Shown: positions 31,342 through 48,722, numbered from the stretch's first letter. The stretch is 64,000 nt of DNA from an uncultured Thermoleophilia bacterium (GCA_963772095.1 CAVYVU010000013.1:39358-103357), one strand, 5' to 3'. The notes: generated by a model from the sequence alone, not told the origin. Numbers and translations: made by a program.

Positions 31342-32616
31342 TCATAGGACGATGAGTTCCAGTGGGAAATCGCCGAGGATTTGCGGCTCGTCCTCGCGGA
31401 CGATGACAACTCTGGAGGCGTTTAGTGAAACACCGTTTCTTGTGGCCATGTTGTGCCCGATAGCAAGGGAGTGGCCGACCATCAGATCCATGTCTTCCCA
31501 GTCATAGGGGTAGGCGGGTCTGTCGATGGTGTTGATACCGACACCATGGATCTCTGGCAGAAAGACGCCGTGGATGGCGTGGCCTCTGAGCATCGCGTCA
31601 TCGTAGACAAACGGTTCCAAGCCTTTTGACACCTTGAAAGCGTTGATCTTCTGATGAAGCTCCGCGTACTTGGCACCCGGCCTGAGGAGCGAAATCGTGT
31701 AGCACGTCACGTCTTTCGCGTCATCGTATAAGGCTTTGATTTCCTCGCGCGGCTCCTTGAAGAAGAAATAGCGTCTATTGTAGGAGTAGTAGCCGCCGGC
31801 ACCCGGGGATTCAAGCAGCAGTTGCACGATATCGGTATGCTTGAGCCTGTAATCACGCATCAGTTCGATCGTGCTCTCACCTTTGTGATCGCCTCCGACA
31901 CCGCCGATGGGTTCTCCATACTCATCCAGGAAACCGATGATGACCTTGCCGAAAAGGGAAGGATCGGCCCCCCATATCGACAACTGGCGCGTGATATCGC
32001 AATTGATTTCCCAGATTGTGCGGCCGGGATACATGTAGTTGGCGGCGGAAGCAAAGATCTTGTCGTGCAGATGGGTCGCATCGGCGATGCACACGATTTC
32101 CTCTTCGCTTTTGACAGCCTTCATATGCTCGATCTCATTGCTGATGTCGACGATCTCCATGCCTGGGCAAACCGCCGCGAGATAATCGCGAAAGGCGACG
32201 GTGAGGAAGAAGGCGGTCCCGTCGTAGGCAATACGCTTGGCTCCCCTCAGATAGACGCTCATGTCGTCTACACCTGAGTAGGGCTCCCGATCCTTGCGAC
32301 TGTTGCAGGCCTTTACCCCCGGAACTTCAATCAGCTCGCCGTTCGCCGGCAGAATCAATGTCATCGTGTTGCGGAAGCCGTTGAACCCGCTCAGCCAGTA
32401 CATCGTTGACTGGCTCGCAAAGGTGGCTGTGGGGAACCAGCATTGGGCAATCAACAGGTCACAATCCAGCTCCTTGAGCTTCGCCCGTACGAGATCCTGC
32501 CGCCTTCGTATTTCCGCTTCGGAAAAGGGCGCCACATAGGGGACGATGATGCCTCTTTCCATGTTGCCAAAGACGAGCATGTTCGGCCATCTGGCGCCAT
32601 TGAACGTCTCGAGCAT
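31342..32616 (-). CDS. M24 (creatinase/Xaa-Pro peptidase fold) protein, paralog 1
   Basis: Creatinase-N motif FSEAEIRRRQ, KAVKSEEEI, PGRTIWEI, GGYYSYNRR, LRPG, IHGVG; start at 32616 after AGGGAGG. Confidence 0.8.
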   Translation of the reverse strand: MLETFNGARWPNMLVFGNMERGIIVPYVAPFSEAEIRRRQDLVRAKLKELDCDLLIAQCWFPTATFASQSTMYWLSGFNGFRNTMTLILPANGELIEVPGVKACNSRKDREPYSGVDDMSVYLRGAKRIAYDGTAFFLTVAFRDYLAAVCPGMEIVDISNEIEHMKAVKSEEEIVCIADATHLHDKIFASAANYMYPGRTIWEINCDITRQLSIWGADPSLFGKVIIGFLDEYGEPIGGVGGDHKGESTIELMRDYRLKHTDIVQLLLESPGAGGYYSYNRRYFFFKEPREEIKALYDDAKDVTCYTISLLRPGAKYAELHQKINAFKVSKGLEPFVYDDAMLRGHAIHGVFLPEIHGVGINTIDRPAYPYDWEDMDLMVGHSLAIGHNMATRNGVSLNASRVVIVREDEPQILGDFPLELIVL

Positions 32617-32726
32617 CTTCCCCTCCCTTACCTGCCAAGCTGTGCTTTGCGCCGCTCTCAAGTTTCTTCAACCATGGAAGGAAATCCGTTCACCGACCGA
32701 CTGAGCGAGGACGCGGTTTGGAGAGT

Positions 32727-32763
32727 GATCAGTTCGGACTGTCATCGATCAGTTCAGACTGTC
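32727..32763. repeat. 17-bp direct repeat with 20-bp period upstream of M24 paralog 1
   Basis: GATCAGTTCGGACTGTC (32727-32743) and GATCAGTTCAGACTGTC (32747-32763), 16 of 17 identical. Confidence 0.8.
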
Positions 32764-32811
32764 CTGAGGTTCCCAGGGTCAGAGGGGAACCGCGCCCGGT
32801 GATCAAGCCTC

Positions 32812-33306
32812 TCAGAAGCCTTCAGGGATTTCCGCGTCACCACCTGGCCGCATGCAATTGTAGGGATTAAAGACTTCCCGCAAACGCTTAATCTTTCCGT
32901 CCTTCAAAGTGAAGCTGAGCAGATAGTGATTCTCGTAGTAGTGCGGGTCGTCCCATCTAGGGTCGTACCTCATCCCCCTGCCCCGTAGTTCCGCAAACAC
33001 GGTCCATGGATCGTCGGTCGGGAAGATAGTGACATCATAAAAGCCCCAGTCAGGAAAGGCAGAATTCTCCCCTCGTGCAACGTCCGCCTCTCTCTCATCA
33101 TTGACACGGTATGCAAAATTCGGGTTATCGTGCGGACCGCCGCAGAACGTAAGCTCGAATCTGCCGTCGGTGTCATACAGAGCTTTGCGCTTTTCATGAC
33201 GGTCTGGCCCTTCCAGTTTGACAAAGGCCTCCACAGCCGCCACGTTAGCCAGCCTCTGTTCTTCCAGTTCCTCGCTAAGACAGAAGGGCCCGTACTTGTC
33301 AGACAT
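32812..33306 (-). CDS. PhzA/PhzB family protein (copy 2)
   Basis: RLANVAAVEAFV, FPDWGFYD, TDDPWTVFAELRGRG, YYENHYLLSFTLKDGKIKRLREVFNP. Confidence 0.88.
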   Translation of the reverse strand: MSDKYGPFCLSEELEEQRLANVAAVEAFVKLEGPDRHEKRKALYDTDGRFELTFCGGPHDNPNFAYRVNDEREADVARGENSAFPDWGFYDVTIFPTDDPWTVFAELRGRGMRYDPRWDDPHYYENHYLLSFTLKDGKIKRLREVFNPYNCMRPGGDAEIPEGF

Positions 33307-33322
33307 GCCTGCCTCCTCAGCT

Positions 33323-33802
33323 CTACATGACGCGATCGGGCGCAGGGTTCCAGAAAGCCTGATCGAGCTTCATCGGATTCATGAACTCTTTCATTGACTT
33401 GATTCTTCCATCCACTACTACAAACAGAATGAAGAAATGGTTGTCATATTCATGTGGGTCCGTGAACATAGGATTCTTCATCAGACCCTGGCCGTCGCAC
33501 TCTGCGATGAATCTTTCTGGGCTTGGTGTCCTGTAAATCGTTACATTGGAATAGCCAAAATCAGCCCACTTCTTCTGAAGTCTCAACATCTTTTCGCGTA
33601 GAGCCTTTTTGCCCACGGTACGTTCCGGCAAGCAAGATCTCGTGGAGCAAATCTCGCGCATTCCGTCATCGGCAAACAAGCCGAGCCGTTCCTCGATTCG
33701 ATCGGGACCTTTCAAGGCCATGTATTCTTCCACGGTCTTTCGGTTTCTCTCTTGGAGAGACAAGGCTTCGTCGTTCGGACACGCAGCGAGGTTTACAGAC
33801 AC
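33323..33802 (-). CDS. PhzA/PhzB family protein (copy 3)
   Basis: ERNRKTVEEYMALKGPDR, FIAECDGQG, YDNHFFILF..VDGRIKSMKEFMNP; GTG start after AAGGAGG. Confidence 0.88.
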   Translation of the reverse strand: MSVNLAACPNDEALSLQERNRKTVEEYMALKGPDRIEERLGLFADDGMREICSTRSCLPERTVGKKALREKMLRLQKKWADFGYSNVTIYRTPSPERFIAECDGQGLMKNPMFTDPHEYDNHFFILFVVVDGRIKSMKEFMNPMKLDQAFWNPAPDRVM

Positions 33803-33987: not shown

Positions 33988-34677
33988 TCAGAGTGACGCC
34001 CGAAATCTTTCCAGCCCGTTCCGCCAGTGTTCTTCGGTCGCCTTACTTGCGGCGTCCGGATTGTGGTTTCTAAGCGCCTCCAGGATCCGCTCGTGCTCTA
34101 CGATAGATTGAGCAGATGAAGCGCCCCGACCATAGAAGTAGCGGGTGAAACGCGCTCCAAATCGGTCGAGTCGCTTCGCGGCGTCCGCAAGATACTGGTT
34201 CCCGGTCGAGTCCACCACAACCTCATGAAACCGCAGGTCCAGCTTGACCAGAAGATCAAGGTCCAGTCTCTCGACGGCGGACTTGGCCTCCGTGATAATC
34301 GCTTCAATCTCGCCGACTCCATCATCAGTGATCCTCGCGGCGGCGAGTGTCGCGGCAAAGGGTTCGAGCACTTCCAGACATTCAACAGCCATGCCGTACT
34401 CGGAGATATCGAGCCCAGCGACCGTCGTCCCCATCCCGGGTACCCGCTTGACCAGATACTCTTGGGCCAGAAGAAGTAAAGCCTCCCGCAGAGGAGTCCT
34501 CCCGACGCCGAGTTGTTCCGCTAATTGACCTTCGCTAACGATGGTTCCTGGTGGAAGCTCACTACTGACGATCATCGACCTGACGGACTCGAGGACGTCT
34601 TTTGACCGACGAGCCATCCTTTGACGAGACGGAGCTGAACCCACATGAGACGAAAGCGTTTTGGCCATGGCCATCAC
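33988..34677 (-). CDS. GntR family regulator (FCD domain), paralog 1
   Basis: SEGQLAEQLGVGRTPLREAL HTH; DLRFH...GNQYL...EHERILEAL. Confidence 0.92.
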   Translation of the reverse strand: MMAMAKTLSSHVGSAPSRQRMARRSKDVLESVRSMIVSSELPPGTIVSEGQLAEQLGVGRTPLREALLLLAQEYLVKRVPGMGTTVAGLDISEYGMAVECLEVLEPFAATLAAARITDDGVGEIEAIITEAKSAVERLDLDLLVKLDLRFHEVVVDSTGNQYLADAAKRLDRFGARFTRYFYGRGASSAQSIVEHERILEALRNHNPDAASKATEEHWRNGLERFRASL

Positions 34678-34795: not shown

Positions 34796-36511
34796 CTATG
34801 CCTTGATCCAAAGGTTCCTGGTATCCGCGTAGGTAACAATGGGTACGGGTTGGGCGCCCCCGATCTTCTGGCTGTATGCGTCCACTTGATCGGCGTCGAC
34901 CGGGACGACCACCGAGCCGCGATCGTAGATGATCACCTGCATCTGGTGGAACAGGTCTTTACGCTTGGCCGGGTCGGCTTCCGCGCGGGCTTGACTGAAC
35001 AGTGAATTGAACTCCGTGTCGTTGAAGTGTGTGGAGTTGTACGGAGAGTCGGGCAGGAAGCTGAGCGCATACTGTACCGAAAGAGTCTGGGCCGGCCAGA
35101 AGCTGGTCGACGTTTGCCGATTCTTGTACTCCGGACCAAAGTACACCGAGGGATCGAGCTTGTTGACCGTCATCTTGATGCCGGCCGCCTGAGCCTGTTG
35201 AGCATAGGCGGTCGCCAGATCCACGATACTTGGGGCGGTGTTGGCAGTGTTCAGTGCGATCGCAGTCGAGCCTTTGCCTGATTTCTGCATGAGAGACTTC
35301 GCTTGGTCAGGGTCGTAGGCACGCTGGGGCAGGTCGGAAGCATAGTTGGGGTCTGCGGGTCCCGGCATAAGATCGTTGGCCACTTGTGCGTGCCCGGCAA
35401 ATACCTGGTCGACCAACTGCTGACGGTTTGCGGCAAACCTGCACGCCTGGCGGACCTGCGGGTCGGTAAAGGGCTCCTTCTGCACGTTCATGTTGATGGA
35501 GTAGACCGTCGGCGTGTGATACGCGACTACCTGCAGGGACTTGTTGGCCTGGACCACAGCGACCTGCGAGAGGTCGAGGTTGGTTAGGACGTCGACCTGC
35601 CCGCCGACGAGAGCGTTGATCCGCGCGGTGTCGTCAGCGAAGGAGTAGACCACCATGCCGTCAGCATAAGGCTTGCCTTGATCCCAGAATCCATCGTACC
35701 TGGAGAGAGTGGCCTTACTCCCGGGGGCGAAAGTGTCCATTTTGAATGGCCCGGTGCCCACGGGCTTGGCAGGATCGAAGTCCGTCGGGACGATGAACAC
35801 CTGCCACAGCCCTTCGTTCATCATGCTGTCCGGGCTCTTCAGGCGAAAGCGCACAGTCCGGTCGTCGACCTTGTCGATCGCGTTGGGGTCGACCGCGTTG
35901 AGGATGCCCGAGGTGAAGGACCCTTTCGTGAGGGCGCGCTTGAACGAGAAGATGACGTCATCCGCGGTGACTGGCTTACCGTTGTGGAAGGTAACCCCCT
36001 GCCGGAGCCGAGCGATCCAACTGGAAGGATTCTCCATCGTGACTTCTTCCGCCAGTGCCAGCTGAAAAGCGAGCGAGCTCTCGACGGGAGGCGGGGCCAG
36101 CAGCTGGTCGTACATCGAGAATATGAGAGTATTCGCCGTCATGGTCGACGCGATGTTGTTCGGGTCCGCCGTGTCCGCGCTGTTGCCTATGCACCCGATG
36201 AGAAGCTGACCGCCTTTGACAGGGCCGGCGGCCGCGGCCGTCGTGGTTGGACCCGCAGCGGTCGTGGTAGGACCGGCACCAGTCGTCGTGGGGCCGGCGG
36301 TGACAGTCGTCGGCGCCCCGGTGGTAGTTGTCGTTCCCGCGTTTCCACAGCCGGCTAGAAAACCCGCGCCGCCAAGCCCGAGAGCCACCGCGCCAGCGCC
36401 AGCAAGCCGCAAGAATTCCCGGCGCGAAGTCTGGCGGACTAGAAAGCTCTGGTCTACTGTTTCTTCCTCCTGATCCTGCCTTTTGTCGAGATGTGTGGGG
36501 TCTGTACTCAT
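34796..36511 (-). CDS. ABC transporter substrate-binding lipoprotein (DppA/NikA family 5), Tat-exported
   Basis: SRREFL twin-Arg and lipobox LAGC; GPTTT 7-residue repeat linker; LRQGVTFHNGKPVTADDVIFS, GTGPF, DPQVRQA. Confidence 0.92.
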   Translation of the reverse strand: MSTDPTHLDKRQDQEEETVDQSFLVRQTSRREFLRLAGAGAVALGLGGAGFLAGCGNAGTTTTTGAPTTVTAGPTTTGAGPTTTAAGPTTTAAAAGPVKGGQLLIGCIGNSADTADPNNIASTMTANTLIFSMYDQLLAPPPVESSLAFQLALAEEVTMENPSSWIARLRQGVTFHNGKPVTADDVIFSFKRALTKGSFTSGILNAVDPNAIDKVDDRTVRFRLKSPDSMMNEGLWQVFIVPTDFDPAKPVGTGPFKMDTFAPGSKATLSRYDGFWDQGKPYADGMVVYSFADDTARINALVGGQVDVLTNLDLSQVAVVQANKSLQVVAYHTPTVYSINMNVQKEPFTDPQVRQACRFAANRQQLVDQVFAGHAQVANDLMPGPADPNYASDLPQRAYDPDQAKSLMQKSGKGSTAIALNTANTAPSIVDLATAYAQQAQAAGIKMTVNKLDPSVYFGPEYKNRQTSTSFWPAQTLSVQYALSFLPDSPYNSTHFNDTEFNSLFSQARAEADPAKRKDLFHQMQVIIYDRGSVVVPVDADQVDAYSQKIGGAQPVPIVTYADTRNLWIKA

Positions 36512-36790: not shown

Positions 36791-37342
36791 CTAGGTCCTC
36801 TCGGCCGATTCCGCCGCGACTGCTGCAGCTGCCTCTCCAATGGCGATGTCCCAGTTCCGCATGTCGCCGTCAAAAGAAGCCCGCGTGATGTCACCGTTGA
36901 AGTACTCGGAAAAACGCGAGATCTTATCTCCCTCGACCTCCATGAAGACCACGTAGTCGTTGGAGTAGACGTTGCCTTTGCTCGGGCCGAGCAACACCTG
37001 GTTCCAACTCTTGCTCTTGTAGACAAAGAGCGCTGGGTTCTCAGTGGTGTGCATCTCAAGCCAGAGACAATCGTGATTGCCAAAGACACGCATGACCTTG
37101 TAGTACTCTTCCTTGATGGCTTCAGGGCCGATCTTCTGCATGCCGTCGTGTCGGTAGGGTGTCTCGAGGATCCCATCGGGAGTCATCATGTCGGCAAAGC
37201 CATCGACGTCAAACCGATGCCAGCGCTCCAGGAATCGGATGCAAACATCAAGATTCTTGCGTCGCTCAGGATCTAGGGGTCCGATTGTGCTCGGGATTGC
37301 CTGGAAATCGGTTGACAGTGGTTCTTTGTGGCTGCTCTTCAC
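36791..37342 (-). CDS. SnoaL/NTF2-like protein (PhzA/B-related), tandem copy A
   Basis: RKNLDVCIRFL, ADMMTPDGILETP, VYSNDYVVFMEVEGDKISRFSEYFN. Confidence 0.82.
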   Translation of the reverse strand: MKSSHKEPLSTDFQAIPSTIGPLDPERRKNLDVCIRFLERWHRFDVDGFADMMTPDGILETPYRHDGMQKIGPEAIKEEYYKVMRVFGNHDCLWLEMHTTENPALFVYKSKSWNQVLLGPSKGNVYSNDYVVFMEVEGDKISRFSEYFNGDITRASFDGDMRNWDIAIGEAAAAVAAESAERT

Positions 37343-37372: not shown

Positions 37373-37915
37373 CTAGCTATTCTGTTGCGCCGCAAGGAAT
37401 GCCGCCGCCTCTTGTTCGGCGATCTTCATGTTATCGAGGTCGTTGTCGAAGGCTTCCATCAGAACCGTGGGGTTGAAGTACTCAGAAAAGCGCGCGATCT
37501 TCTCACCCCGTACCTCCATGAACACGACGTAATCGTTCGAGTACACATTGCCCTTGCTTGGCCCGAACATGACTCTGTTCCAGCTCTTACTCTTGTAGAT
37601 GAATGTGGCGGGATCGTTGGTGGTCCACATCTTCAGCCAGAGACAGTCGTGCTCGCCGAAGAGAGTCATGGTGGTGTAGTAGGCCTTCTTCGCCTCTTCG
37701 GGCCCCACGTGCTGCTCTCCGCCCAGGTACGGTGTCTCGAGAATCCCGTCGGCAGTCATCATCCCGGCGAAGCCGTCTACGTCAAAACGGTGCCAGAGCT
37801 CTAGGAAGCGAATACAAACGTCGAGATTCTTTCGTCGCCCGGGATCCAAGGGGCCGAGCGCGCTAGGGATAGCACCGAAATCTGTGGAGAGCGGCTCTTT
37901 GTAGCTTCCCTTCAC
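37373..37915 (-). CDS. SnoaL/NTF2-like protein (PhzA/B-related), tandem copy B
   Basis: Near-duplicate of copy A (KEPLSTDF, YKSKSWN, GPSKGNVYSNDYVVFMEV); GTG start at 37915 after GAGGAGG. Confidence 0.82.
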   Translation of the reverse strand: MKGSYKEPLSTDFGAIPSALGPLDPGRRKNLDVCIRFLELWHRFDVDGFAGMMTADGILETPYLGGEQHVGPEEAKKAYYTTMTLFGEHDCLWLKMWTTNDPATFIYKSKSWNRVMFGPSKGNVYSNDYVVFMEVRGEKIARFSEYFNPTVLMEAFDNDLDNMKIAEQEAAAFLAAQQNS

Positions 37916-38030
37916 TTGACTACACCTCCTCAGGGATTCCGAGATTCCCAACCGCCTTCCCAGCCCACGGAAGGTGGTGCGCGCTCTTCTCCGATCGTGT
38001 CGCTGACGTTCATGACTGCTTTATCCGTTC

Positions 38031-39923
38031 CTAGCCCCCGGCGAGTACCTCTTCCTCTAGGTGTTCGGATGTGTCGAAGCCTGCACGCGTTTCCACAAGT
38101 ACCTTGGTGTAAGCGTTTTGCGGTCGCTCAAATATCTCGGCAGTGGGTGCGCGTTCAACGATCACGCCGCCGGCAAGGACTGCAACCTCAGTGGCCAGGG
38201 AACGCACCAGGGCGAGCTGGTGGGTGATAAAGACCAAGCCGACGCCTTCCTCTTCGAGGAGTCTTCGCAAAAGCTCGATGATCGAGGCCTGTACGGACAC
38301 GTCCAAGGCGGAAGTGACCTCATCACAGATCAGGTAGCGCGGTCGGCAGATCAACGCTCGAGCCAGTGCGACACGCTGGCGCTCACCACCGCTCAGTTGA
38401 TGGGGGTAGCGGTCAACGTATGAGACCGACAGGGAAACCTTGGCGAGAGTCTCGCCGACTGCAGCACGCGCGCCGGCGCCGCCGAAGAAGAGCTTGTGCG
38501 GTTGCGCGACGATGTCGAAGACCGTCTTCCGCGGGTTGAGGGATGCAAAGGGATTCTGAAATACATATTGGATTGCTTGGCGCGTCGAGGCGGGCCGACG
38601 TTGAACCTCCCGCTCTAGAGTCTGGCCTTCGAGCCGGACCTCCCCTCGATAGCGCCCGTGTAGCCCTGCAAGGCATCGGGCCAAGGTCGTCTTCCCGCTC
38701 CCCGACTCGCCGACAACTGCAAGACAGTCACCGCGGATGACATCCAGGCTGATTCCACGGAGAATCTGTCGCGCCCCATAGCTCGCGTACAGATCAGCGG
38801 CCACAAGACCCTTCAATTCCTCCTGTCTGGTGGACACGGCAAGTACCTGAGGAGGTCGGGACCGCAACTGTTCGACCAATTCCACCCGCAGGCACCTCAC
38901 CTGGTGAGTGGGCGATATGAATCCCGTTTCAGGCAGGACTTGGAAGCAGGCTTCATCCGCGATCTCACATCGAGGTGCAAAGGCGCAGCCTGGCGCACGT
39001 TCAAAGGGTGACGGGGCCTGGCCTGGTATCCCTACCAAGGCGTGACGGCCCGACCCTTCGGGCACTGCGTCAAGCAGCCTTTTCGTATACGGATGTCTCG
39101 GGTTGTCAATGACCTCCCTGATCGGCCCTGACTCGACTACTGTTCCCGCGTACATGACGGCCAGCCTATCCGCGACCGACGAGACGACAGCCAAGTCGTG
39201 ACTCACCCAGACAGCCGCGACCCGGTGACGAGTGCACATGTCGCGCACCAAACGAACGATATGTCCTTGAGTGATCACATCGAGCCCCGTGGTGGGCTCA
39301 TCTAGAATCACGAGAGATGGTCCGCAGGAGAAGGCAGCAGCAATCAATACCCGTTGCTGTTGGCCACCCGACAACTGGTGCGGGTAGCGCCGAAGGAAGG
39401 CGGCGTCGCTTGGCAGCAGCACTTCCTCCATGAGCTGTCTGAGGCGCTGACGTCGGTCGGCTCGGTCGCGCCCGACATGGTGAACACGGAGCATCTCATC
39501 GAGTTGTCGGCCGATTCTTCGCCCCGGGTTGAGTGCGGTGCCAGGGTCTTGCGAGACGTAGGAGACGACTCGGCCACGAACCTGCCTCAATTCCCGAGGC
39601 GCCAACGTCAGAAGTTCCTTGGGCCCGATGATGACCTCACCGGCCGCGATTCGCAGCCCACGCTGCGCGAAACCAAGCAGCGCGAGCGCCAGAGTCGTTT
39701 TGCCGCACCCTGACTCACCGACCAGCCCCAGGATCTCACCCGGAGCGATGACGAAAGAGACTGGGGCAACAATTCCGGTTCCGTCAGTGGTAGTAACACT
39801 CAGGACGTTTGCGCAAGCTGCACCCCCATGGCCTTCCTCGGGGATCGGCTCACCGCGACCATCCATGGCACCCGCCGATTTGCCGACGACCCCGGACAAG
39901 TCTGTGTCTTTGGTACTCATCAT
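38031..39923 (-). CDS. Fused double-ATPase subunit (DppD/DppF-like) of a peptide/nickel ABC importer
   Basis: Two Walker A motifs ([16 protein letters not shown]), two YPHQLSGG signatures, oligo_HPY motif HPYT; start at 39923/39920 coupled to the permease stop. Confidence 0.92.
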
Positions 39924-40789
39924 CACTTGATCGAAGCGTCCGCGCGTGACAAGACCCGCGCTAGGCCATCTGAAATGAGGTTCGTGCCCACGGCCAGAGC
40001 AGCGATCGCGATGACCGGAGCAACCACGCCCCAGGGCTGAATCGACAGTCCGCCTTTGTTCTCGAATACCATCAGACCCCAGTCCGGATGTGGGGGCTGG
40101 GTACCGAAACCCAGGAAGTTGAGGGTCGCCACTATGGCGATCGCCACGGTGAACCGAATCGGCAGTTCGACGAGAAACGTTCCGGTCACGTTGGGGAGCA
40201 CCTCCGAAAACAGGATCTTGAAGCGTTTCATCCCCATCGCCTCGGCTGCCCTGATGTAGTCCCTTTGGTAGACATCCATGGTCGCCGCTCGCATTACCCG
40301 GGCCGTGCCGGGGATCTGTACGAGATCCACAATGATGATGAGCAGCCACCAAGCGGTACCCAGACGCGTAAGCAGGAGCAGCGCGAACACCAGGGGCGGA
40401 AAGACCATGATCACGTCGAGACATCGCATTATCAGGTCGCCACGCCAGGTCTTCGAACTTCCCGCAATGAGGCCCAGAAGGAGCCCGATGGCTACGGCAG
40501 CAACGCTCGCAAGAAAGGCTACGATCAGAAGCGCCTTGCCGCCCGCCAGAAACCGGCTGAACACGTCGCGACCCTGGTAATCCGTCCCAAGCAATGTGTT
40601 GGACGAGGGCGCCGAGTACGACTTCTGAATGAACTGTGTGGGGTCGTGGGGCGCGGCAAACTGCCCAAAAGCGGCGATCAAGATGACGATTCCGGCCAGG
40701 GCGATTCCCAACCAGATCTTCTTAGGCCATCGAGTTGCCGTTACTCTGTCGCCAGCCTTACCGCGACGTCGCACGACCGGCCACTTCAT
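39923..40789 (-). CDS. Peptide ABC permease (DppC-like)
   Basis: LLGTDYQGRDVFSR, YIRAAEAMG...ILFSEVLPN, FLGFG..PP.PDWG. Confidence 0.92.
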   Translation of the reverse strand: MKWPVVRRRGKAGDRVTATRWPKKIWLGIALAGIVILIAAFGQFAAPHDPTQFIQKSYSAPSSNTLLGTDYQGRDVFSRFLAGGKALLIVAFLASVAAVAIGLLLGLIAGSSKTWRGDLIMRCLDVIMVFPPLVFALLLLTRLGTAWWLLIIIVDLVQIPGTARVMRAATMDVYQRDYIRAAEAMGMKRFKILFSEVLPNVTGTFLVELPIRFTVAIAIVATLNFLGFGTQPPHPDWGLMVFENKGGLSIQPWGVVAPVIAIAALAVGTNLISDGLARVLSRADASIK

Positions 40790-41832: not shown

Positions 41833-42253
41833 GCCCCTCCCCACGGTTCCGCCTCGATGTGCAAGATTCTCTCTACTCCCACCGAGGCGATAATGCAAAT
41901 CCCGCGAGCGACTCCAATCGGTCAGTACTCTGGCACGGCTGGATGCTTCTGGCCGTACCCGAAATATCCAACCTAATCAATTGATATCATGACGCTTGAT
42001 ACAAAACAAATCCTGTTTTCATTCGACATGATGCATTTTTGTAGTCGACAACAATAATGGCAATGTGATATATGTGAGAGACACGACCGTGCCGAGAGCC
42101 GGGCGAGGCCACGACAATGATCGGGAGGACGGCTTACACGCACCAGACCTCCGGCGCCGTGACTCAACCCCCCGACGAGTGGCTCTCGCGATGATTCCGA
42201 CGGTTGCGCTAACACACGGCGTCGCAAGCTCTTGTCAGGAGGAGAGTGCGCCC

Positions 42254-43858
42254 ATGGGAACCGAGACCACGCCCTTCAGGAATGAGCCTCCCGTCGACTT
42301 CTCGCTTGAGTCGAGTCGCCAAGCGATGGCTGAAGCACTCGACGTCAGACGCAGACACCTTGGGGGCCATCACCCCCTGATCGTGGACGGCAAAGACGTG
42401 ACCAGCCTTACATCAACCACCTCGGTGAACCCTGCGCATGCCCGTCAGATCATCGGAACGGTATCAGCGGCTGGCCCGAGAGAGGTCGACGCCGCCTTGA
42501 ACGTTGCGCGACAGGCTTTTTCTGCATGGCGCGATACGCTGCCCAGCGAGCGGGCCACCATCATGTTCAAGGCCGCCGCCATCATGCGAGCGCGACGCTT
42601 TCAGCTCTCTGCGCTTCTGGTGCTCGAGGCCGGGAAGCCGTGGATCGAGGCCGACGCGGACACGTGTGAGGCCATTGATTTCCTCGAGTACTACGCTCGC
42701 GAGATGCTTCGTCTTGAAAGACCTTCGCGCCTCGGCCGTGACTCTGCTGAGAGGGGTTTCTACTTCTACGAGCCTCGCGGCGTGGCCGTCGTCATCGCTC
42801 CGTGGAATTTCCCGCTGGCGATTGCCACCGGAATGACGTCGGCGGCTCTTGTGACCGGCAACACGGTCGTCTTCAAGCCTGCCTCTCCCACTTCCGTCTT
42901 GGGCGCCGAGATGGTTCACATATTTCATGAAGCGGGCGTGCCCGTCTCTGCTCTGAGCTTCCTTCCGTGTGTGGGGAAGGACACTGGCGCGATGCTGGTG
43001 CGAGATCCCCGGGTCGACCTGATTGCCTTCACCGGGAGCCTAGAGGTGGGTCTGTTCATCCTCCGCGAAGCCGGCTTGGTGCGCCCAGGGCAGCGCAGCA
43101 TCAAGAAAGTGGTCGCCGAGATGGGCGGCAAGAACGCAATCATCGTAGACTCAGACGCAGACCTCGATTCAGCCGCGGCGGGAGTCGTACGCTCGGCCTT
43201 CTTCTACTCGGGGCAAAAGTGCTCAGCCTGTAGTCGCGTAATCGTCCACGAGGCCGTTTACAAACCGTTTCTAGAGCGCCTGCTGGATCAGACCTCCTCC
43301 CTCGCAGTGGGCGACCCAGCCGACCAAGGGACGCAAGTAGGCCCCGTAATTTCTGCAGAAGCGCGCAGCAAGATCCTCGCGTACATCGAGAGAGGGAAGG
43401 GGGAGGCGCGGCTGGTCCTTCCGTCCAATGGCGAAGAGCCGCAATCGGACGGTTTCTTTGTACGACCCCATGTCTTTGTCGACGTCTCCCGGGGCGCGAC
43501 GATTGCTCAAGAGGAGATCTTTGGTCCTGTCCTAGCCGTATTCAAGACCGCGGACTTCGATCAGGCGCTCGAGTTGGCGCTGAGCGTGCCCTACGCACTA
43601 ACAGGGGGAGTCTACTCGCGGGATCCGCACAATCTTCGGAGAGCTTTCCGTGAGTTCCGGGTGGGCAATCTCTATATCAACCGCCATATCACTGGAGCCT
43701 TGGTCGGGCTTCACCCCTTCGGTGGCTCGCGAATGAGCGGTGTAGGGTCAAAGGCCGGCGGTCCAGACTACTTGCTCCAGTTCCTTGAACCTCGAGTGGT
43801 TACCGAGAGCCTCACGGACATCGACATGGACTTGGTCGGAAGCCTCTATTCTGCCTGA
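42254..43858 (+). CDS. pruA: L-glutamate gamma-semialdehyde (P5C) dehydrogenase, stand-alone RocA/PruA type
   Basis: FRNEP, EADADTCEAIDFLEYY, PWNFPLAI, AEMGGKN, GQKCSACSR, EEIFGP, GSKAGGPDYL; no proline dehydrogenase domain. Confidence 0.88.
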   Translation: MGTETTPFRNEPPVDFSLESSRQAMAEALDVRRRHLGGHHPLIVDGKDVTSLTSTTSVNPAHARQIIGTVSAAGPREVDAALNVARQAFSAWRDTLPSERATIMFKAAAIMRARRFQLSALLVLEAGKPWIEADADTCEAIDFLEYYAREMLRLERPSRLGRDSAERGFYFYEPRGVAVVIAPWNFPLAIATGMTSAALVTGNTVVFKPASPTSVLGAEMVHIFHEAGVPVSALSFLPCVGKDTGAMLVRDPRVDLIAFTGSLEVGLFILREAGLVRPGQRSIKKVVAEMGGKNAIIVDSDADLDSAAAGVVRSAFFYSGQKCSACSRVIVHEAVYKPFLERLLDQTSSLAVGDPADQGTQVGPVISAEARSKILAYIERGKGEARLVLPSNGEEPQSDGFFVRPHVFVDVSRGATIAQEEIFGPVLAVFKTADFDQALELALSVPYALTGGVYSRDPHNLRRAFREFRVGNLYINRHITGALVGLHPFGGSRMSGVGSKAGGPDYLLQFLEPRVVTESLTDIDMDLVGSLYSA

Positions 43859-43934
43859 GGCGCGTCTGCCAAGATGGCCACATGTGTACGATGAGATCCC
43901 CGCCCGGCCGGATCCTGAAAGATCGGCCAACCAC

Positions 43935-45317
43935 ATGAGCCGGACAGCCGAAGCTCGGCCCCGAGCGACCGCCGATCTTGCGCACCACGAAATCGTTCGG
44001 ACCTGGTGGCCGCTAGCTGGCAGCTGGCTCCTGATGAGCATTGAAGGCCCGGCGATGGCCGCCATCATCGCCCGCCTTGCTCACCCCGAAATAAACCTTG
44101 CAGCATACGGCGGTCTGGTCTTTCCCATCGCCGTGTTGATCGAGGCCCCCATAATGATGATCTTGGCTGCCTCCACAGCCCTGAGCCGTGATTGGCTATG
44201 CTACGCAAAGCTGCGTAGGTTCACGCATGTACTTGGGGCTGGTCTGACAGCGATTCACGTAATCCTGGTGGCCACGCCTGTGTACTACTTTGTGGCCCGA
44301 GGGCTGGTACACGCGCCCGAGGAGATCATCAGACCCGCGCGGCTGGGTCTTCTCATCGTGATCCCCTGGACGTGGTCGATCGCCTACCGCCGCTTCGGCC
44401 AGGGAGTCCTCATCCGCCTTCGCCGTTCCATCTGGGTAGGCACAGGAACCGTGATAAGACTGGCAGCTGAAGTCGCGGTTCTAGCCGTAGGGTACGCCAT
44501 CGGCTCGCTTGCCGGCGTAGCGGTTGCAGCCCTGGCCATGAATGCGGGAGTGATGAGTGAAGCACTCTTTGTCTTCATTGTCCTACGGAAACCGCTGAAG
44601 ACTGAATTGAAGCCCGCACCTATACTTCAGCGGCCGTTCACCACGCGGGAGCTCATACGCTTCTACGTCCCACTCGCCTTGACATCGACGATAGCGCAGA
44701 TCTGCGCCCCTATCGGCAGCGCGGCCATAAGCCGCATGCCCAGAGCTCTCGACTCTTTGGCAACGTGGCCGGTGGTGAGCGCGATGAGACTCCTGGCGAG
44801 CAGCCCGGGTCTTGCTTACAACGAAACCGTAGTAGCCCTCGTTGAGCGACCGAAATCATCTCAAAGGCTATGGAGATTCAGTCTCACCCTGAGTGCGTTC
44901 GCCACGGCCGGTCTCGTATTGCTCATCACTCCACCAGTGGCGAACCTCGTATTCAAGAGCCTCCTTCATCTACCTCCAGCGGTTGCCCTACTTAGCCATC
45001 GCAGCCTGTGGTTCCTCTTGCCGATGCCGACGATCGCGGTACTTCAAAGTTGGTATCAGGGCGTAATCCTACACAGCGGAAGGACGCGGAGCATCATCGA
45101 ATCGGTTCTGCTCTTCACGGTGGTCATCGCCAGTTTCCTGGCTGCTGGGGTGAGTTGGGGGATCTTCACCGGTATATACGTGGCAGCAGGAACGTTCACA
45201 GTTGGCGATATCGTGCGGACGGTATGGCTGTGGATCCGCAGCAGAAGTGCCCGCCGATCACTCGCGGCCAGAGATTCGGAAACGATCGAGGCTGTTGATT
45301 CGGCCGCCGCGAGCTGA
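43935..45317 (+). CDS. MATE/MOP-superfamily (ANKH-like) membrane transporter
   Basis: WWPLAGSWLLMSIEGP..AAIIARL..PEINLAAYG; two-fold internal symmetry (FYVPLALT...ISRMP...LATW); about 12 TM segments. Confidence 0.65.
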   Translation: MSRTAEARPRATADLAHHEIVRTWWPLAGSWLLMSIEGPAMAAIIARLAHPEINLAAYGGLVFPIAVLIEAPIMMILAASTALSRDWLCYAKLRRFTHVLGAGLTAIHVILVATPVYYFVARGLVHAPEEIIRPARLGLLIVIPWTWSIAYRRFGQGVLIRLRRSIWVGTGTVIRLAAEVAVLAVGYAIGSLAGVAVAALAMNAGVMSEALFVFIVLRKPLKTELKPAPILQRPFTTRELIRFYVPLALTSTIAQICAPIGSAAISRMPRALDSLATWPVVSAMRLLASSPGLAYNETVVALVERPKSSQRLWRFSLTLSAFATAGLVLLITPPVANLVFKSLLHLPPAVALLSHRSLWFLLPMPTIAVLQSWYQGVILHSGRTRSIIESVLLFTVVIASFLAAGVSWGIFTGIYVAAGTFTVGDIVRTVWLWIRSRSARRSLAARDSETIEAVDSAAAS

Positions 45318-45398: not shown

Positions 45399-46238
45399 TC
45401 AACTATCCTGCCCCTTGGAAAACGAGCTCGCCTCCTGTAGGTGTCGACTTCGCTCCATGGCCGCTTCAACCGCGTGTTGAAAGGCGTCCCGAACTTCTCG
45501 GTCTATCAATACTTCCATCCCCGCGCTATCTACCTCAGAATGCGAGGTCGTCTGTTCAATGAGTTCAGCCGGAGACTCCGAGTAAGCCGACAGCAGTTGC
45601 GCGGTGGTGACCGCTGTCTGTCGCACAAAAGCACGGGCCATGGCTCTCGGCAAACCTACCGCGACAGCTCCGTCTTCAAGGCTCTCGAGGGCGAGCGCGA
45701 GAAAACCGGGACCTGTTCCAGACACAGCCGTGACGGCGTCCAGCATCTTCTCCGGTACTACCTCACAAATGCCCAGGGCGTCGAACAGACCAATCACACT
45801 CTGCATGTCAACATCCGGCGTGTTGGGTTCAGAAGAGAGGGCCACGACACCGACTCCGAGTTCCACCCCTAGGTTTGGCATGATCCGGTAGAGAGCAGGT
45901 CCCGGGCCGATGGTCTTCCGAAGCCATTTCAGGTGGACCCCGGCCATTGACGAGACTATGGTCTGATCCTTTCGCACGAATGGAGCTACAGCAGTCAGAA
46001 CGCCGAGTGCATCCTTAGGCTTTACGACCACGAACAGAACATCTACATTTCTTACCAGATCTTCGAGGGAGCGAGCCAGCGACACGGGGCCAGGAGTAAG
46101 CAGCCGAAAGGCCGACTCTTTGATCTTATCCCAAACGAGTATTTCCAGGCCTGGCTCCGGCGCACGAAGCCAGCCCTTGACCAAGGCGGAGCCCATGTTG
46201 CCGGTACCTATGACTCCGAGGGTCATTCCCATAATCAT
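45399..46238 (-). CDS. proC: Pyrroline-5-carboxylate reductase-like protein (divergent C-terminus)
   Basis: IGTGNMGSA, VVKP, SSMAGV, RIMPN, DAVTAVSGTGPG, EDGAVAVGLPR. Confidence 0.82.
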   Translation of the reverse strand: MIMGMTLGVIGTGNMGSALVKGWLRAPEPGLEILVWDKIKESAFRLLTPGPVSLARSLEDLVRNVDVLFVVVKPKDALGVLTAVAPFVRKDQTIVSSMAGVHLKWLRKTIGPGPALYRIMPNLGVELGVGVVALSSEPNTPDVDMQSVIGLFDALGICEVVPEKMLDAVTAVSGTGPGFLALALESLEDGAVAVGLPRAMARAFVRQTAVTTAQLLSAYSESPAELIEQTTSHSEVDSAGMEVLIDREVRDAFQHAVEAAMERSRHLQEASSFSKGQDS

Positions 46239-46433
46239 CTGTCCTAAGTGTCGCGATTCTTCCTAATAAGCGCCTGGGACCTGCAAGGATTCGCTCGACG
46301 GGCCTCGACATTTGGGTGGCGTCCTTCAGCGTCAGCGCTAGCACACATGTTCGAGACCAAGACCGGCCCTCCCTTCATTCTCAGTTGCCTTTACTCACAT
46401 TCGCCGATTGCCGGAGAAGCCGTGGCCAGATGA

Positions 46434-47123
46434 TCAAAGACCGGCCCAGAGTCTTCCCAGAGCGTTGTGCCAGTGGTCGAAGGCCACCCTTTCCGCCTCG
46501 TCCGGTGAATGGCTTCTGAGGGCTTCTAGGATGCGCTCGTGCTCGCCAATAGAGGGCATCGTCGGAACGCCACGGCCGTAAGCAAAACGCCAAAAGCGAA
46601 CCGAATAGCGGTTCAAGCGCATTGCCGCATCCCGGAGGTACTTGTTTTGAGTAGCAGCCAGGACTGCCTCGTGAAAGCGTAGATTCAGCAGAGCAGCCTG
46701 GTCTACATCCCCCGCTTCGGCAGCGGATCTCTCCGCGTTCAAGATCGACTCGATCTCCCCCAACTCAGCCTCGGTGATCCGTACTGCAGCCAGTCTCGCC
46801 GCAAAAGGCTCCAGACCCTCTTGACACTCCGAGATGAGCGCATAATCGGCGATGTCGAGCCCCGCGACAGTGCTTCCCATGCCTGGGATTTGTTTGATCA
46901 AATACTCCTGCGCGAGAACGAGCAGGGCTTCCCTTAATGGAGTCCTGCCGACGCCGAGTTGCTTGGCAAGCTGACTCTCACTCACGACGGCACCGGGTGG
47001 CAGCTCGAAACTCACGATCATGGACCTAATGGTCTCCACCAAGTCTGTCGACTGGCGAGCCATCCGGCGCCGTGGCATGGGCCGGTTTGTTTGCGACGAT
47101 CCAGCCTCGGACAATGTCACCAC
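46434..47123 (-). CDS. GntR family regulator (FCD domain), paralog 2
   Basis: SESQLAKQLGVGRTPLREAL; NLRFH...EHERILEAL; closely similar to 33988..34677; start uncertain. Confidence 0.92.
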   Translation of the reverse strand: MVTLSEAGSSQTNRPMPRRRMARQSTDLVETIRSMIVSFELPPGAVVSESQLAKQLGVGRTPLREALLVLAQEYLIKQIPGMGSTVAGLDIADYALISECQEGLEPFAARLAAVRITEAELGEIESILNAERSAAEAGDVDQAALLNLRFHEAVLAATQNKYLRDAAMRLNRYSVRFWRFAYGRGVPTMPSIGEHERILEALRSHSPDEAERVAFDHWHNALGRLWAGL

Positions 47124-47441
47124 TCCTCATTGGCTCAAGCGCGAACGAGATAAAATGCTTCAGACCAAGCCAACTGTGCTACCCGCACACGCGAACTCAC
47201 GGCTACACGGGCAAAGGCTAGCCCAAGTGACCCCGAGCCAACGAATGTTCCGGGACCAGAATGATACCCGAAGTATACCGTCATCAATGCGCGAGATATT
47301 CTCCAAGTATTTTCGACTTGATTTGGCTCGTTGCTTCCGCTCCAGCGACTGATCGAGTACGTGGGTCGAGAACTGGGCAAGTCCATCTGCGACGAGACCT
47401 ACTCCGATTGGCCTCTATGAATCAAACCAACCCTCGGCGTT

Positions 47442-48722
47442 CTACAGAACGATAAGTTCCATCGGGAAGCTGCCGAGAACAAGGGGTTCGTCCTCCTTGA
47501 TAATGCAAGTCTTCTGGGCATTGGCCGACCTAGCCCCTTGGCGAACCTCGCCACCACCATAAATGACCACAGAATGACCGGGTTCTAACACGATGTCTTC
47601 CCAAGAGAACTGCGGCTGCGGCCGGTCGATTGTATTGATGCCAATGCCGGAAATCTCGCCGAGGAAGCAGCCGTGTATCAGGTTTTCCCTGTCTTTTTCG
47701 GGAGTTGTGACCAGGGGCTCAAACCCATGGTCAACTTTGTAAAGGTTGACCTTCTTGTGGATGTCGGCCCCCGTGGCACCAGGACGCAGTAGAGACGCCG
47801 TATAGTAAAGCATCTCCACCGCTTCATCCCACACTTCCCTGATCTCCGGATGGGGTTCGCTGAAGAAGAAATTACGACCATTGGTGGCGTAGTAGCCACC
47901 ACTGCCCTGGGCTTCCAACATTAGGCCGACATAGTCGTCCTCTCCGAGACGGTAGTTCGGGTCGTCTGCAAAGCGCGTGCTGACCCCCGCATTCGCGCTG
48001 GACGTTTCGTCATCGGCGCTGAACGCCGCGTTGCGGCCGAAGCCGACCAGAACCTTTCCCATCAGCGTGGGGTCGGCGCCCCACAGCACCATCTGTCGGG
48101 TGATATCCGCTGTGATTTCCCAGAACGCGCGGCCGGGATGGAGGTAGTTAGCGGCGCTGGCGAATACCCTCTCCTGAATGGCCACAGCATCTGCTATCAG
48201 TTCAATCTCCTCATCGCTCTTGACCGCCTTCATGTGCTCGATTTCATTACTGAAATCAATGATCTCCACCCTGGGCGCCGTCTCCTCTAGATACTGTTTG
48301 AAAGCAGCCGTCAAATACCCCAAGCCATCATAGGCAATACGTTTGGCGCCTTTGATGTGTGTACGCATGTCCACGACCCCGGTGTAGGGGTCCCGGCTCT
48401 TCAGATTGCAGCAGGCCTTGACCCCTGGGATTTCGGCGAGTTCGCCGTCCACGGGGAGGATTAACGTCATGGTATTCCGGTAGCCGTTGTAGCCGCCCAA
48501 CCAGTACAGAGAAGAATGGCAGCCGAAAGTCGCAGTGGGGAACCAGCCCTGGGCAATCAACAGGTCACAGTCCATTTCCCTGAGTTTGGCGCGAACCAGA
48601 GTATGGCGACGTTCAATTTCCTCCTTCGAAAACCGCGAGATGCCGGTGTGTCCGAAGGGCTTATCGTTCGCCAGATGGAAGATCATATTCGGCCATCTTC
48701 GGGCATCAAACAATTCGAACAT
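47442..48722 (-). CDS. M24 (creatinase/Xaa-Pro peptidase fold) protein, paralog 2
   Basis: FSKEEIERRH, KAVKSDEEI, GGYYATNGR, LRPG; colinear with 31342..32616 (shared RWPNM, WFPTATF, FRNTMT/YRNTMT, INTIDRP). Confidence 0.8.
   Translation of the reverse strand: MFELFDARRWPNMIFHLANDKPFGHTGISRFSKEEIERRHTLVRAKLREMDCDLLIAQGWFPTATFGCHSSLYWLGGYNGYRNTMTLILPVDGELAEIPGVKACCNLKSRDPYTGVVDMRTHIKGAKRIAYDGLGYLTAAFKQYLEETAPRVEIIDFSNEIEHMKAVKSDEEIELIADAVAIQERVFASAANYLHPGRAFWEITADITRQMVLWGADPTLMGKVLVGFGRNAAFSADDETSSANAGVSTRFADDPNYRLGEDDYVGLMLEAQGSGGYYATNGRNFFFSEPHPEIREVWDEAVEMLYYTASLLRPGATGADIHKKVNLYKVDHGFEPLVTTPEKDRENLIHGCFLGEISGIGINTIDRPQPQFSWEDIVLEPGHSVVIYGGGEVRQGARSANAQKTCIIKEDEPLVLGSFPMELIVL

Follow-up and report, generated by a model that had tools for sequence, protein, structure and literature searches.

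Two genes in the window, a 64,000-nucleotide stretch of DNA from an uncultured Thermoleophilia bacterium, encode paralogous proteins that, judged by sequence, are best explained as cytoplasmic two-domain pita-bread proteins that have given up their dinuclear metal centre. They belong to a tiny, rare, patchily distributed and undescribed subfamily of the M24 proteins, here called M24v. The loss of metal ligands, the rarity of the family, a conserved gene linkage and purifying selection are direct observations. From these we infer catalysis, hydrolase chemistry, a substrate class and an order of steps, and propose with moderate confidence that M24v proteins are metal-independent C-N hydrolases belonging to an accessory catabolic module that feeds P5C/proline metabolism. 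The strongest clues are the rarity of the family, the pattern of Arg/Lys substitution, and a near-universal linkage to genes for PhzA/B-like proteins together with linkage to P5C reductase.

Two M24-fold paralogs without a dinuclear metal site

Both open reading frames (ORFs) are present in the window (Table 1), and their translations match those quoted in a preliminary description of this DNA. Paralog 1, previously started at the TTG at 32661, is better started at the ATG at 32616, 15 codons within that ORF, because none of the relatives has anything matching the 15 additional residues. The two proteins are 53% identical over a full-length alignment and share, as had been described, an upstream IHG and an INTIDRP motif. 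Both match Creatinase_N and, above cut-off, Pfam Peptidase_M24 (PF00557, clan MG; E 2e-10 and 4e-15), placing them in the pita-bread fold originally proposed. An AF2 model of paralog 1 (pLDDT 80.8; active-site loops of moderate confidence, pLDDT 56-68) gave a Foldseek probability of 1.00 against many M24 structures. In structural comparison, this model matched prolidase, creatinase, PepE and EutD about equally (TM ~0.6).

Ligand columns were read from a HMMER alignment to M. ulcerans PepE (4ege) and a Deinococcus prolidase, and also with MAFFT. The PDB alignments served as the control, the host genome's other M24-like genes being unusable (broken sister-clade ORFs). In place of the ligands D-D-H-E-E, paralog 1 carries L/Y/H/G/S (L267, Y279, H357, G387, S401) and paralog 2 carries M/T/S/Y/Q (M268, T280, S358, Y388, Q403). 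The earlier claim that most dinuclear ligands are gone therefore holds for both paralogs, as do its details of Asp to Tyr or Thr at the second column, His to Ser in paralog 2, and the absence of both Glu ligands. Two of its readings were revised. The Glu of LLE/MLE, taken as a substitute for the first Asp, falls two residues past that column (E269 in paralog 1, E270 in paralog 2), and the His of paralog 1, described as kept, was according to the family tree regained in a lineage whose ancestor carried Arg.

Across M24v, the Glu two residues past ligand 1 is the sole invariant among the old-site positions. Most members have Arg at the His-ligand position, the ancestral state on the tree, surrounded by three acids: Glu at ligand 1 +2, Glu at ligand 2, and one at the fifth-ligand position or beside it. 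Both window paralogs fall in a soil clade that has lost the ligand-2 Glu and the His-position Arg and has gained a basic residue at or next to ligand 5 (Arg402 beside S401 in paralog 1, Lys404 beside Q403 in paralog 2), although the assignment of acid and base to this adjoining position could reflect a one-residue register shift. The correlated change at three positions is essentially one event on the family tree. This pattern suggests that an Arg or Lys side chain may stand in for the metals.

M24v is a rare subfamily under purifying selection

The sequence marks that define M24v are the invariant Glu at ligand 1 +2, G-G-Y-Y, D-R-P and an N-terminal R-W-P-N; further marks are Arg or Lys at the His-ligand or fifth-ligand position and an adjoining PhzA/B-like gene. 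The window paralogs fit this definition. Among 1.84 billion proteins the subfamily forms ~8 clusters at 50% identity; 8 full-length clusters scored >375 bits against the profile, and the next score was only 193 bits. There were 38 matches in 5.8 billion clusters, 5 loci in 185,579 species genomes and none in 40 relatives. A literature search found no description of a metal-free M24 family with NTF2 or P5C reductase partners.

Ranked by profile score, M24v is followed (at 120-175 bits) by an uncharacterised and unnamed M24-like sister clade (P0049-P0079) with the pattern xLE / E / HGQGY / H-P / C-D. The Glu at ligand 1 +2, the Glu at ligand 2, (E/D)-R-P and the N-domain are common to it and M24v. 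Unlike M24v, it has His at both the His-ligand and the ligand-4 positions, and it is far commoner, with hundreds of clusters. Four sister-clade genes lie elsewhere in the host genome, all with broken ORFs.

The sister clade retains five possible, non-canonical ligands (E/E/H/H/D) and the ancestral M24v type keeps three carboxylates, which would suit M24v proteins that remain metalloenzymes, their site rebuilt and probably mononuclear. Candidate ligands would be those three carboxylates or, in paralog 1, Glu269 with the two nearby His residues, His357 and His349. We regard such a site as improbable, since paralog 2 has a single carboxylate and otherwise Ser, Thr, Tyr and Gln, every clade conserves a cationic Arg or Lys at the site, and the two His residues of paralog 1 are not conserved even in close relatives.

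Outside the old ligands, the polar residues E269, Y276, R282, K224, D207 and D218 are invariant family-wide, and Y277 and R366 (of D-R-P) nearly so. A conserved N-domain loop, N-G-Y-(R/K)-N-T, aligns at the substrate loop of creatinase, whose residues we take to be Phe62/Arg64. Together, the invariant polar set and this loop argue for a maintained pocket that would bind a carboxylate.

Both paralogs are under strong purifying selection. Paralog 1 gave dN/dS of 0.065-0.080 against its orthologs; paralog 2 gave 0.047-0.054 against its two orthologs, which gave 0.079 between themselves. Losing four or five of five ligands is what would be expected of a dead peptidase, and one related locus (L015) does carry a truncated M24v gene, a remnant PhzA/B gene and a split reductase. 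That the window paralogs are functionless, decaying remnants of peptidase genes is nevertheless extremely improbable: their frames are intact, 37 alignment columns are invariant across phyla, gene linkage is conserved, and dN/dS of 0.05-0.08 at dS >1 effectively refutes the pseudogene reading.

Comparison with creatinase, ectoine hydrolase and prolidases

Creatinase is the known metal-independent member of the M24 fold. Like M24v, it (EC 3.5.3.3; 1chm, 1kp0, 7yto) combines Creatinase_N with a pita-bread domain that is free of the dinuclear site; the strand motif G-Y-Y-x-x-x-x-R is common to both, the conserved N-domain loop of M24v is located where creatinase has its substrate-capping loop, and creatinase 7yto is the best PDB profile match of M24v (E 3e-17). 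The two are, however, only 17-18% identical. In profile alignments with 1chm and 7yto, the creatinase catalytic His (presumably His232 in the P. putida enzyme) has no conserved M24v counterpart, a variable, gapped insert lying opposite GAHNP. No conserved Glu occupies the columns aligned with the guanidinium-binding Glu pair, of which the C-terminal Glu is unalignable, and M24v does not conserve the Glu that creatinase has two residues ahead of the conserved Arg. The M24v gene context contains no sarcosine or urea genes.

Ectoine hydrolase (DoeA/EutD, EC 3.5.4.44; 6twk, 6yo9) shares the M24 fold (structural match TM 0.60), opens a small cyclic amidine, not a peptide, and works with a partner enzyme (PMC8739950). 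Its partner is a deacetylase, whereas that of M24v would be an NTF2 protein. A juxtaposed eutE/doeB deacetylase gene serves as a criterion for ectoine hydrolase (PMC8739950), and a Pfam scan of the cluster genes between 28 and 49 kb found no EutE/DoeB deacetylase. Scores against the DoeA/EutD models were 15-27 bits, compared to cut-offs of 613 (TIGR02993) and 575 (NF038259).

The small prolidases (PepQ, PepE 4ege, Pyrococcus 1pv9) resemble M24v in fold and size, and a link to proline metabolism is found in the M24v neighbourhood. In contrast to these enzymes, five ligands are replaced in paralog 2 and four in paralog 1, as are both of the prolidase substrate-positioning His residues. Xaa-Pro dipeptidase and aminopeptidase P models scored 18-20 bits (cut-offs: PepQ 630, PepP 465), and NCBIfam peptidase, creatinase and ectoine hydrolase models as a whole 11-27 bits against cut-offs of 171-850. 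The NCBIfam scores and the PDB profile alignment rule out membership in the ectoine hydrolases, creatinases and prolidases.

Given the absent dinuclear site, the lack of a fitting model and a catabolic gene context, metal-free activity on a non-peptide substrate is the most economical reading. This partly supports the preliminary proposal of metal-free amidohydrolases for non-peptide substrates, in which the activity itself and amide or amidine hydrolysis are putative.

Gene context in the window

Table 1. Genes surrounding the two M24v paralogs, in window coordinates
Feature	Position	Strand	Remarks
Class-V aminotransferase / SufS-like PLP enzyme	28048..29625	minus	last gene of minus-strand run
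PLP enzyme, D-cysteine desulfhydrase / ACC deaminase / CuyA family	29622..30554	minus	
PhzA/B-like NTF2 protein a	30777..31253	minus	Pfam PF03284 E 7.5e-33; directly downstream of paralog 1
M24v paralog 1	31342..32616	minus	424 aa; Creatinase_N + pita-bread
PhzA/B-like NTF2 protein b	32812..33306	minus	Pfam PF03284 E 8e-21; directly upstream of paralog 1
PhzA/B-like NTF2 protein c	33323..33802	minus	Pfam PF03284 E 8e-27
GntR/FCD regulator 1	33988..34677	minus	
Family-5 solute-binding protein, Dpp/Opp/opine-type ABC importer	34796..36511	minus	
Second SnoaL_2-like NTF2 protein	36791..37342	minus	tblastn; 71% identity to neighbour
SnoaL_2 NTF2 protein	37373..37951	minus	
Fused double ABC ATPase, oligo_HPY type	38031..40424	minus	
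Two ABC permease genes	39923..41898	minus	overlapping ORF limits, starts uncertain
L-glutamate gamma-semialdehyde (P5C) dehydrogenase	42065..43858	plus	NCBIfam NF002852 663.8 bits vs cut-off 648
Multi-pass membrane protein	43785..45317	plus	no family match
P5C-reductase-like protein	45399..46238	minus	same transcription direction as paralog 2; TIGR00112 192 bits, cut-off 196.75
GntR/FCD regulator 2	46434..47123	minus	between paralog 2 and P5C-reductase-like gene
M24v paralog 2	47442..48722	minus	426 aa; Creatinase_N + pita-bread

The window context is one of small-molecule catabolism, not peptide turnover, as seen from the importer, the GntR regulators, the P5C dehydrogenase, the reductase and the PLP enzymes (Table 1). 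PhzA/B-like protein a matches PhzB2 (PDB 3ff0) with E 2e-28; it retains the Glu of R-E-x-x-N and has W/D at the His/Ser pair before FPDW. A word-based homolog search with this protein returned nothing beyond close relatives, found on contigs of the same kinds. The SnoaL_2-like genes recur as a syntenic pair in locus L018, and the multi-pass membrane protein has a 56%-identical ortholog in the related cluster L001. The true start of the fused ABC ATPase is probably near 39940 (the protein is 636 aa in locus L020); the P5C dehydrogenase likely starts further in, its ORF having a long N-terminal overhang. The P5C-reductase-like protein reads SHSEVDS in its substrate loop, not SPGGTT.

PhzA/B-like and P5C reductase genes are linked to M24v across phyla

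We surveyed loci from soil Actinomycetota, Microbacterium, and gut Lachnospiraceae and Oscillospiraceae. PhzA/B-like NTF2 genes (1-7 per locus) lie within 10 kb of M24v in 12 of 13 independent loci, in every case with a transporter and a regulator. P5C reductase adjoins M24v in 7 loci. In two gut genomes the linked gene is the sole proC and its product exceeds the TIGR00112 cut-off, so part of the linkage could be housekeeping gene placement. The Oscillospiraceae have a compact module of a GPH transporter, two PhzA/B genes, P5C reductase, a MarR regulator and M24v, flanked by unrelated genes. In locus L012, a gene for AcnX, which we take to be a family including cis-3-hydroxyproline dehydratase, and one for a glycyl-radical enzyme lie beside a paralog-2 ortholog. 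Other neighbours vary by phylum: gut and unknown lineages have sulfatases, glycoside hydrolases and GPH transporters, and soil ones have aminotransferases and a Dpp-type importer. The family may act on more than one class of substrate.

To our knowledge, phenazine biosynthesis is the one process in which PhzA/B proteins have been described, and a literature search found no paper giving them another role. This, together with proline being the product of P5C reductase and an MFS or membrane protein that could serve as exporter, would fit a biosynthetic cluster, in which a small secondary metabolite or compatible solute is made from proline/P5C by PhzA/B-type condensation and M24v acts in maturation. 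Uptake and breakdown are instead indicated by binding-protein-dependent importers (solute-binding protein family 5 or 1) in clusters of five lineages, by GPH symporters with substrate-type regulators (GntR/FCD, MarR, LysR, PucR), and by P5C dehydrogenase and the flanking sulfatases and glycoside hydrolases. No other phz genes and no NRPS, PKS or ligase genes were seen in the M24v clusters. A biosynthetic role is, in our view, quite unlikely.

Three lineages (the window, L014, and L018 with L020) have paralog-1-type and paralog-2-type genes in one cluster. One or both paralogs might accordingly be a non-catalytic, substrate-binding or capping subunit, in a heterodimer with the other M24v protein or in a complex with PhzA/B-like proteins as the real catalysts. 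Paralog-1-type genes are accompanied by a second M24v gene in the window, in L001, in L014 (where the two are adjacent) and probably in L018 with L020. The old site of paralog 2 retains hardly any residue that could be catalytic, and the N-domains in dimers of creatinase and prolidase each cover the site of the opposite chain, which fits a capping partner. We nonetheless hold a non-catalytic role to be unlikely. Most lineages have a single M24v gene, so that a heterodimer is not required family-wide, and both window paralogs share the family-invariant polar set and equally low dN/dS.

A possible catabolic route to proline

If M24v proteins are metal-independent C-N hydrolases, the adjacent importer would bring in a small, carboxylate-bearing, proline-related conjugate, whose C-N bond M24v would cleave in a creatinase-like manner, with a cation in the metals' place. 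The product, an amino-carbonyl compound or a cyclic imine, would be processed by the PhzA/B-like NTF2 proteins through imine or enol chemistry, and the end steps would lead to proline via P5C reductase or to glutamate via the adjacent P5C dehydrogenase. Two paralogs in one cluster may serve two related substrates or steps.

A more specific version is offered tentatively. M24v, a PhzA/B-like heterodimer and P5C reductase might form a three-enzyme route (unblock, cyclise or isomerise, reduce) that yields P5C/proline from an imported amino-carbonyl or imino-acid conjugate blocked by a sugar or acyl group, using a pita-bread fold in which Arg or Lys replaces two metal ions. This route would be common to human-gut Clostridia and soil Actinomycetota, with multi-paralog clusters in soil. 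Candidate substrates include cyclic dipeptides, N-amidino-, N-glycosyl- and Amadori-proline, thioproline, neuraminic-acid-type amino-keto acids and unsaturated uronates. With uronates, M24v, the NTF2 protein and the reductase might be analogues of UGL, KduI and KduD, respectively.

Implications for the family

Few metal-free members of the pita-bread fold are known; they comprise creatinase, the ectoine hydrolase type, and the non-enzymatic domains of Ebp1 and Spt16. One more such family, with a basic side chain that occupies a ligand position and has moved to another as the family evolved, would plainly illustrate the replacement of a metal centre and help to explain how the fold acquires new chemistry. 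Its near-constant association with PhzA/B-like proteins would also extend that NTF2 family beyond phenazine synthesis. Proline is a key Stickland electron acceptor, and in human-gut Lachnospiraceae and Oscillospiraceae the module beside the genome's P5C reductase may mark a dietary or host-derived source of proline.

Metal-ligand columns of the two paralogs

The open reading frames (ORFs) of paralog 1 and paralog 2 both exist, and their translations match the sequence quoted in the preliminary description. The two proteins are 53% identical end to end and both match Pfam Peptidase_M24 and Creatinase_N; no NCBIfam model came near its cut-off for either (11–27 bits against cut-offs of 171–850). 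Since the alignment to paralog 2 and 26 relatives starts at a Met inside a longer ORF, paralog 1 is best annotated from that Met. For paralog 1, an AlphaFold2 model computed from the family alignment (mean pLDDT 80.8) is about equally similar to prolidases, creatinases, PepE and the ectoine hydrolase EutD (TM ~0.6, identity 14–20%).

Positions of the features discussed (no prefix, window; C, other contigs of the same genome; L, related loci)
Feature	Position	Strand	Remarks
Paralog 1	31342–32616	minus	424 aa; start at Met 15 codons inside TTG ORF 31342–32661
Paralog 2	47442–48722	minus	ORF translated
Gene run with paralog 1	41898 to 28048	minus	
P5C dehydrogenase ORF	42065–43858	plus	
P5C-reductase-like gene	45399–46238	minus	
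MFS_1 transporter	49301–50549	plus	overlapping ORFs 49301–50131 and 49827–50549
Deviating base composition	52001–56000		
Sister-clade M24-like gene	C21:87342–88232		E/E type
Sister-clade M24-like gene	C16:269019–269831		E/E type; runs into Arg-rich out-of-frame stretch
Sister-clade M24-like gene	C5:30897–31811		E/E type
Sister-clade M24-like gene	C17:55068–55832		E/E type
PhzA/B-like gene	L003:9150–9629		
Expanded gene set	L014:131–11278		

The five ligand columns of the M24 fold (D1, D2, His, E4 and E5) were mapped with HMMER against Deinococcus prolidase and M. ulcerans PepE (4ege), and with MAFFT anchored on PepE. In the paralog 1 model these columns fall on strands 263–270, 278–285, 356–358, 382–386 and 396–405, where M24 ligands normally sit, which confirms the loss of the metal ligands in both paralogs that had been read from the sequence. 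Two details of that reading did not hold: the Glu of LLE/MLE, taken as a replacement for D1, lies two residues past the D1 column, and the His described as kept in paralog 1 (H357) was re-gained, on the family tree, from an Arg-bearing ancestor. A rebuilt mononuclear metal site in paralog 2 is unlikely, as only one carboxylate is left there.

Residues of the two paralogs in the M24 ligand columns
Column	Paralog 1	Paralog 2
D1	L267 (E269 at +2)	M268 (E270 at +2)
D2	Y279	T280
His	H357	S358
E4	G387	Y388
E5	S401 (R402 next)	Q403 (K404 next)

Selection and evolution of the pocket

Codon alignments of the window paralogs with orthologs from metagenome contigs, in which dS was above 1 throughout, gave dN/dS values of 0.065–0.080 for paralog 1 and 0.047–0.054 for window paralog 2 against its orthologs (0.079 between its two orthologs). 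Across phyla 37 columns are invariant, many of them polar; they include an N-domain loop, N-G-Y-R/K-N-T, with which the substrate-capping loop of creatinase aligns. Selection maintains both proteins, and their reading as pseudogenes, ruled out by the dN/dS values and the invariant columns, is therefore rejected.

We named the rare M24 subfamily holding both paralogs M24v and built a maximum-likelihood tree of it, with the clade that comes next in profile score as outgroup. That sister clade, itself uncharacterised, has E (D1+2), E (D2), H, H (E4) and C-D, five possible ligands in a non-canonical form. Basal and most other M24v members have E, E, R, a hydrophobic residue and an acid, the Arg lying exactly in the His-ligand column, with which the HMM alignment to PepE agrees. 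Both window paralogs group with the related proteins P0013 and P0014 in a single derived clade (the soil clade), all of it from metagenome contigs. Here the ligand-2 Glu is replaced by Y, F, T, S, I or M, the Arg of the His column by H, S, N or E, and the acid at or next to ligand 5 by R or K (S in P0014); this triple change is essentially one evolutionary event, and the 'E5+1' position may be a one-residue register shift in the alignment. Every M24v member retains the Glu at D1+2, the G-G-Y-Y motif and R282, and all but two retain the D-R-P Arg. These patterns suggest that a side-chain cation, guanidinium or ammonium, may fill what was once the metal pocket of M24v and that, in the soil clade, the cationic group may have shifted from one pocket wall to another.

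The window's genome also carries four sister-clade ORFs of the pattern LxE ... GGYYSE. In all four the M24 sequence is lost soon after the G-G-(Y/L)-Y motif, by a stop or by loss of register; either the assembly has systematic frameshifts at these genes or all four are pseudogenes.

Size and spread of the family

Word-indexed searching of 5.8 billion clusters returned 38 relatives. No more than about 30 reach 38% identity, and hardly any carries a name other than 'Xaa-Pro aminopeptidase'. With a HMMER profile, 1.84 billion representatives yielded eight full-length clusters above 375 bits, the next scoring 193 bits and below. Among 185,579 species genomes, a pattern scan picked up the family at five loci, which belong to a Microbacterium MAG, two MAGs of Oscillospiraceae, a Lachnospiraceae from the human gut and a MAG of Clostridiales. 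M24v is missing from all 40 relatives of the window's genome, two of them from its own genus. G+C content is 0.545–0.549 in the paralog 1 region, against about 0.60–0.63 nearby. M24v is a rare, patchily distributed accessory gene family. A literature search found no paper describing the family or its module.

One metagenome protein of 2229 aa (P0048) gave 42 separate matches to a single 40-residue piece of the M24v profile (positions 121–161), and is either an internally repeated protein or an assembly artefact.

The gene cluster in the window

Paralog 1 lies inside a single minus-strand run that encodes, in order, two permeases, a fused double ATPase, two SnoaL_2 proteins, a family-5 binding protein, GntR/FCD regulator 1, the NTF2-fold proteins PhzA/B-like c and b, paralog 1, PhzA/B-like a, a PLP enzyme of the D-cysteine-desulfhydrase/ACC-deaminase family and a class-V aminotransferase. 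Paralog 2 is the first gene of another minus-strand unit, which also holds GntR/FCD regulator 2 and a P5C-reductase-like gene that scores just below the TIGR00112 cut-off (192.2 against 196.75). The plus strand between the units encodes a P5C dehydrogenase, which exceeds the cut-off of its NCBIfam model, and a membrane protein that matches no family.

In a related metagenome organism, contig L020 ends and L018 begins in the same SnoaL_2 gene. Joined, they give an uninterrupted cluster: paralog 2, permeases, ATPase, two SnoaL_2, binding protein and GntR, then two PhzA/B, paralog 1, PhzA/B and aminotransferase. In locus L014 the paralog-1-type and paralog-2-type genes are adjacent. Both window paralogs therefore belong to one cluster. 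That the paralog types travel together would fit one being a non-catalytic or heterodimeric partner of the other; we give this a low probability. Single-copy lineages show that the family needs no such partner.

L014 also shows an extreme expansion, with seven PhzA/B-like, two SnoaL_2, two Amidohydro_2, a cupin and two M24v genes. In the window, about 63 additional residues with much Arg, Asp and Pro precede the profile match at the N-terminus of the P5C dehydrogenase ORF; the gene probably begins at the Met of MGTETTPF, near 42254. Apart from the P5C-reductase-like gene, the genome (66% complete) gave no proC-type match; proA and proB are on contig C18, proB in two pieces. Both ORFs of the MFS_1 transporter hold part of the MFS_1 profile, the apparent split being either a frameshift or an assembly error. 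One stretch of the window differs strongly from the rest in G+C (rising to 0.73) and AT skew (+0.38 to +0.41).

A conserved module across phyla

Neighbourhoods of 13 independent M24v loci were compared. In 12 of them M24v has a PhzA/B-like gene no more than 10 kb away, once as a remnant in the decaying locus L015; in the exception, L011, the sequence ends 21 bases past the M24v gene. All 13 have a transporter and a regulator, and P5C reductase adjoins M24v in seven. The cleanest module, Oscillospiraceae locus L008, has unrelated genes on both flanks, with a GPH symporter, two PhzA/B-like genes and P5C reductase on one strand and MarR and M24v on the other.

Transporters of the Firmicute modules all exceed the cut-off for the GPH family, their closest relatives being glucuronide transporters; the Microbacterium module has a CUT1 sugar-type ABC system, and Dpp-type systems occur in the soil clade and in L004 and L015. 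Sulfatase and GH3, GH88 or GH39 genes lie near M24v in three loci, and in L012 AcnX, RraA-like genes and a glycyl-radical enzyme flank the paralog 2 ortholog. Transporter type suggests a putative substrate for each group: in Firmicutes a conjugate that bears a sugar or uronate, in the soil clade one that resembles a peptide or opine.

The canonical S-P-G-G-S-T substrate loop is kept in the reductases of the gut and L004 modules and is absent from those of the window and L001, a change that parallels the one in the M24v pocket. The proC linked to the module scores above cut-off in the Lachnospiraceae and the Clostridiales genome and is the only one in each; the Oscillospiraceae genome has a second copy. 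All these genomes carry proA elsewhere, and all but the Clostridiales one proB. The linked proC and the window's P5C dehydrogenase tie the module to P5C/proline, and part of the proC linkage could be housekeeping gene placement. A biosynthetic role of the cluster is disfavoured, as importers, regulators and P5C dehydrogenase speak against it.

The L003 contig carries the Firmicute-type genes CtsR, McsB and ClpC, and a PhzA/B-like gene, flanked by three transposase genes, that is 76% identical to PhzA/B-like a of the window; its M24v is only 45–50% identical. At least some of the module thus seems to have been transferred horizontally in recent times.

Proposed function

M24v is a maintained pita-bread protein without metal ligands and with a conserved polar pocket. 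Both paralogs lack the defining features of creatinase, EutD and the M24 peptidases alike; the closest working type would be the small-molecule, non-peptidase hydrolases of the fold, creatinase and EutD. By analogy with these two, M24v may be a metal-independent C-N hydrolase. Its product would be an amine or imino acid, released from a conjugate that the cell takes up. PhzB acts on an alpha-aminoketone, and the PhzA/B-like proteins retain the PhzB Glu and have lost its His/Ser pair; like PhzB, they might carry out imine or enol chemistry on the amino-carbonyl product. A cyclic imine would then be reduced to proline or oxidised to glutamate.

Ligand loss by itself has precedent; the distinctive Arg/Lys pattern and the new conserved partner set argue for M24v as a new metal-free pita-bread family. 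The module of M24v, PhzA/B-like proteins and P5C reductase, also present in human-gut Clostridia, offers a concrete, testable lead to an unknown pathway.
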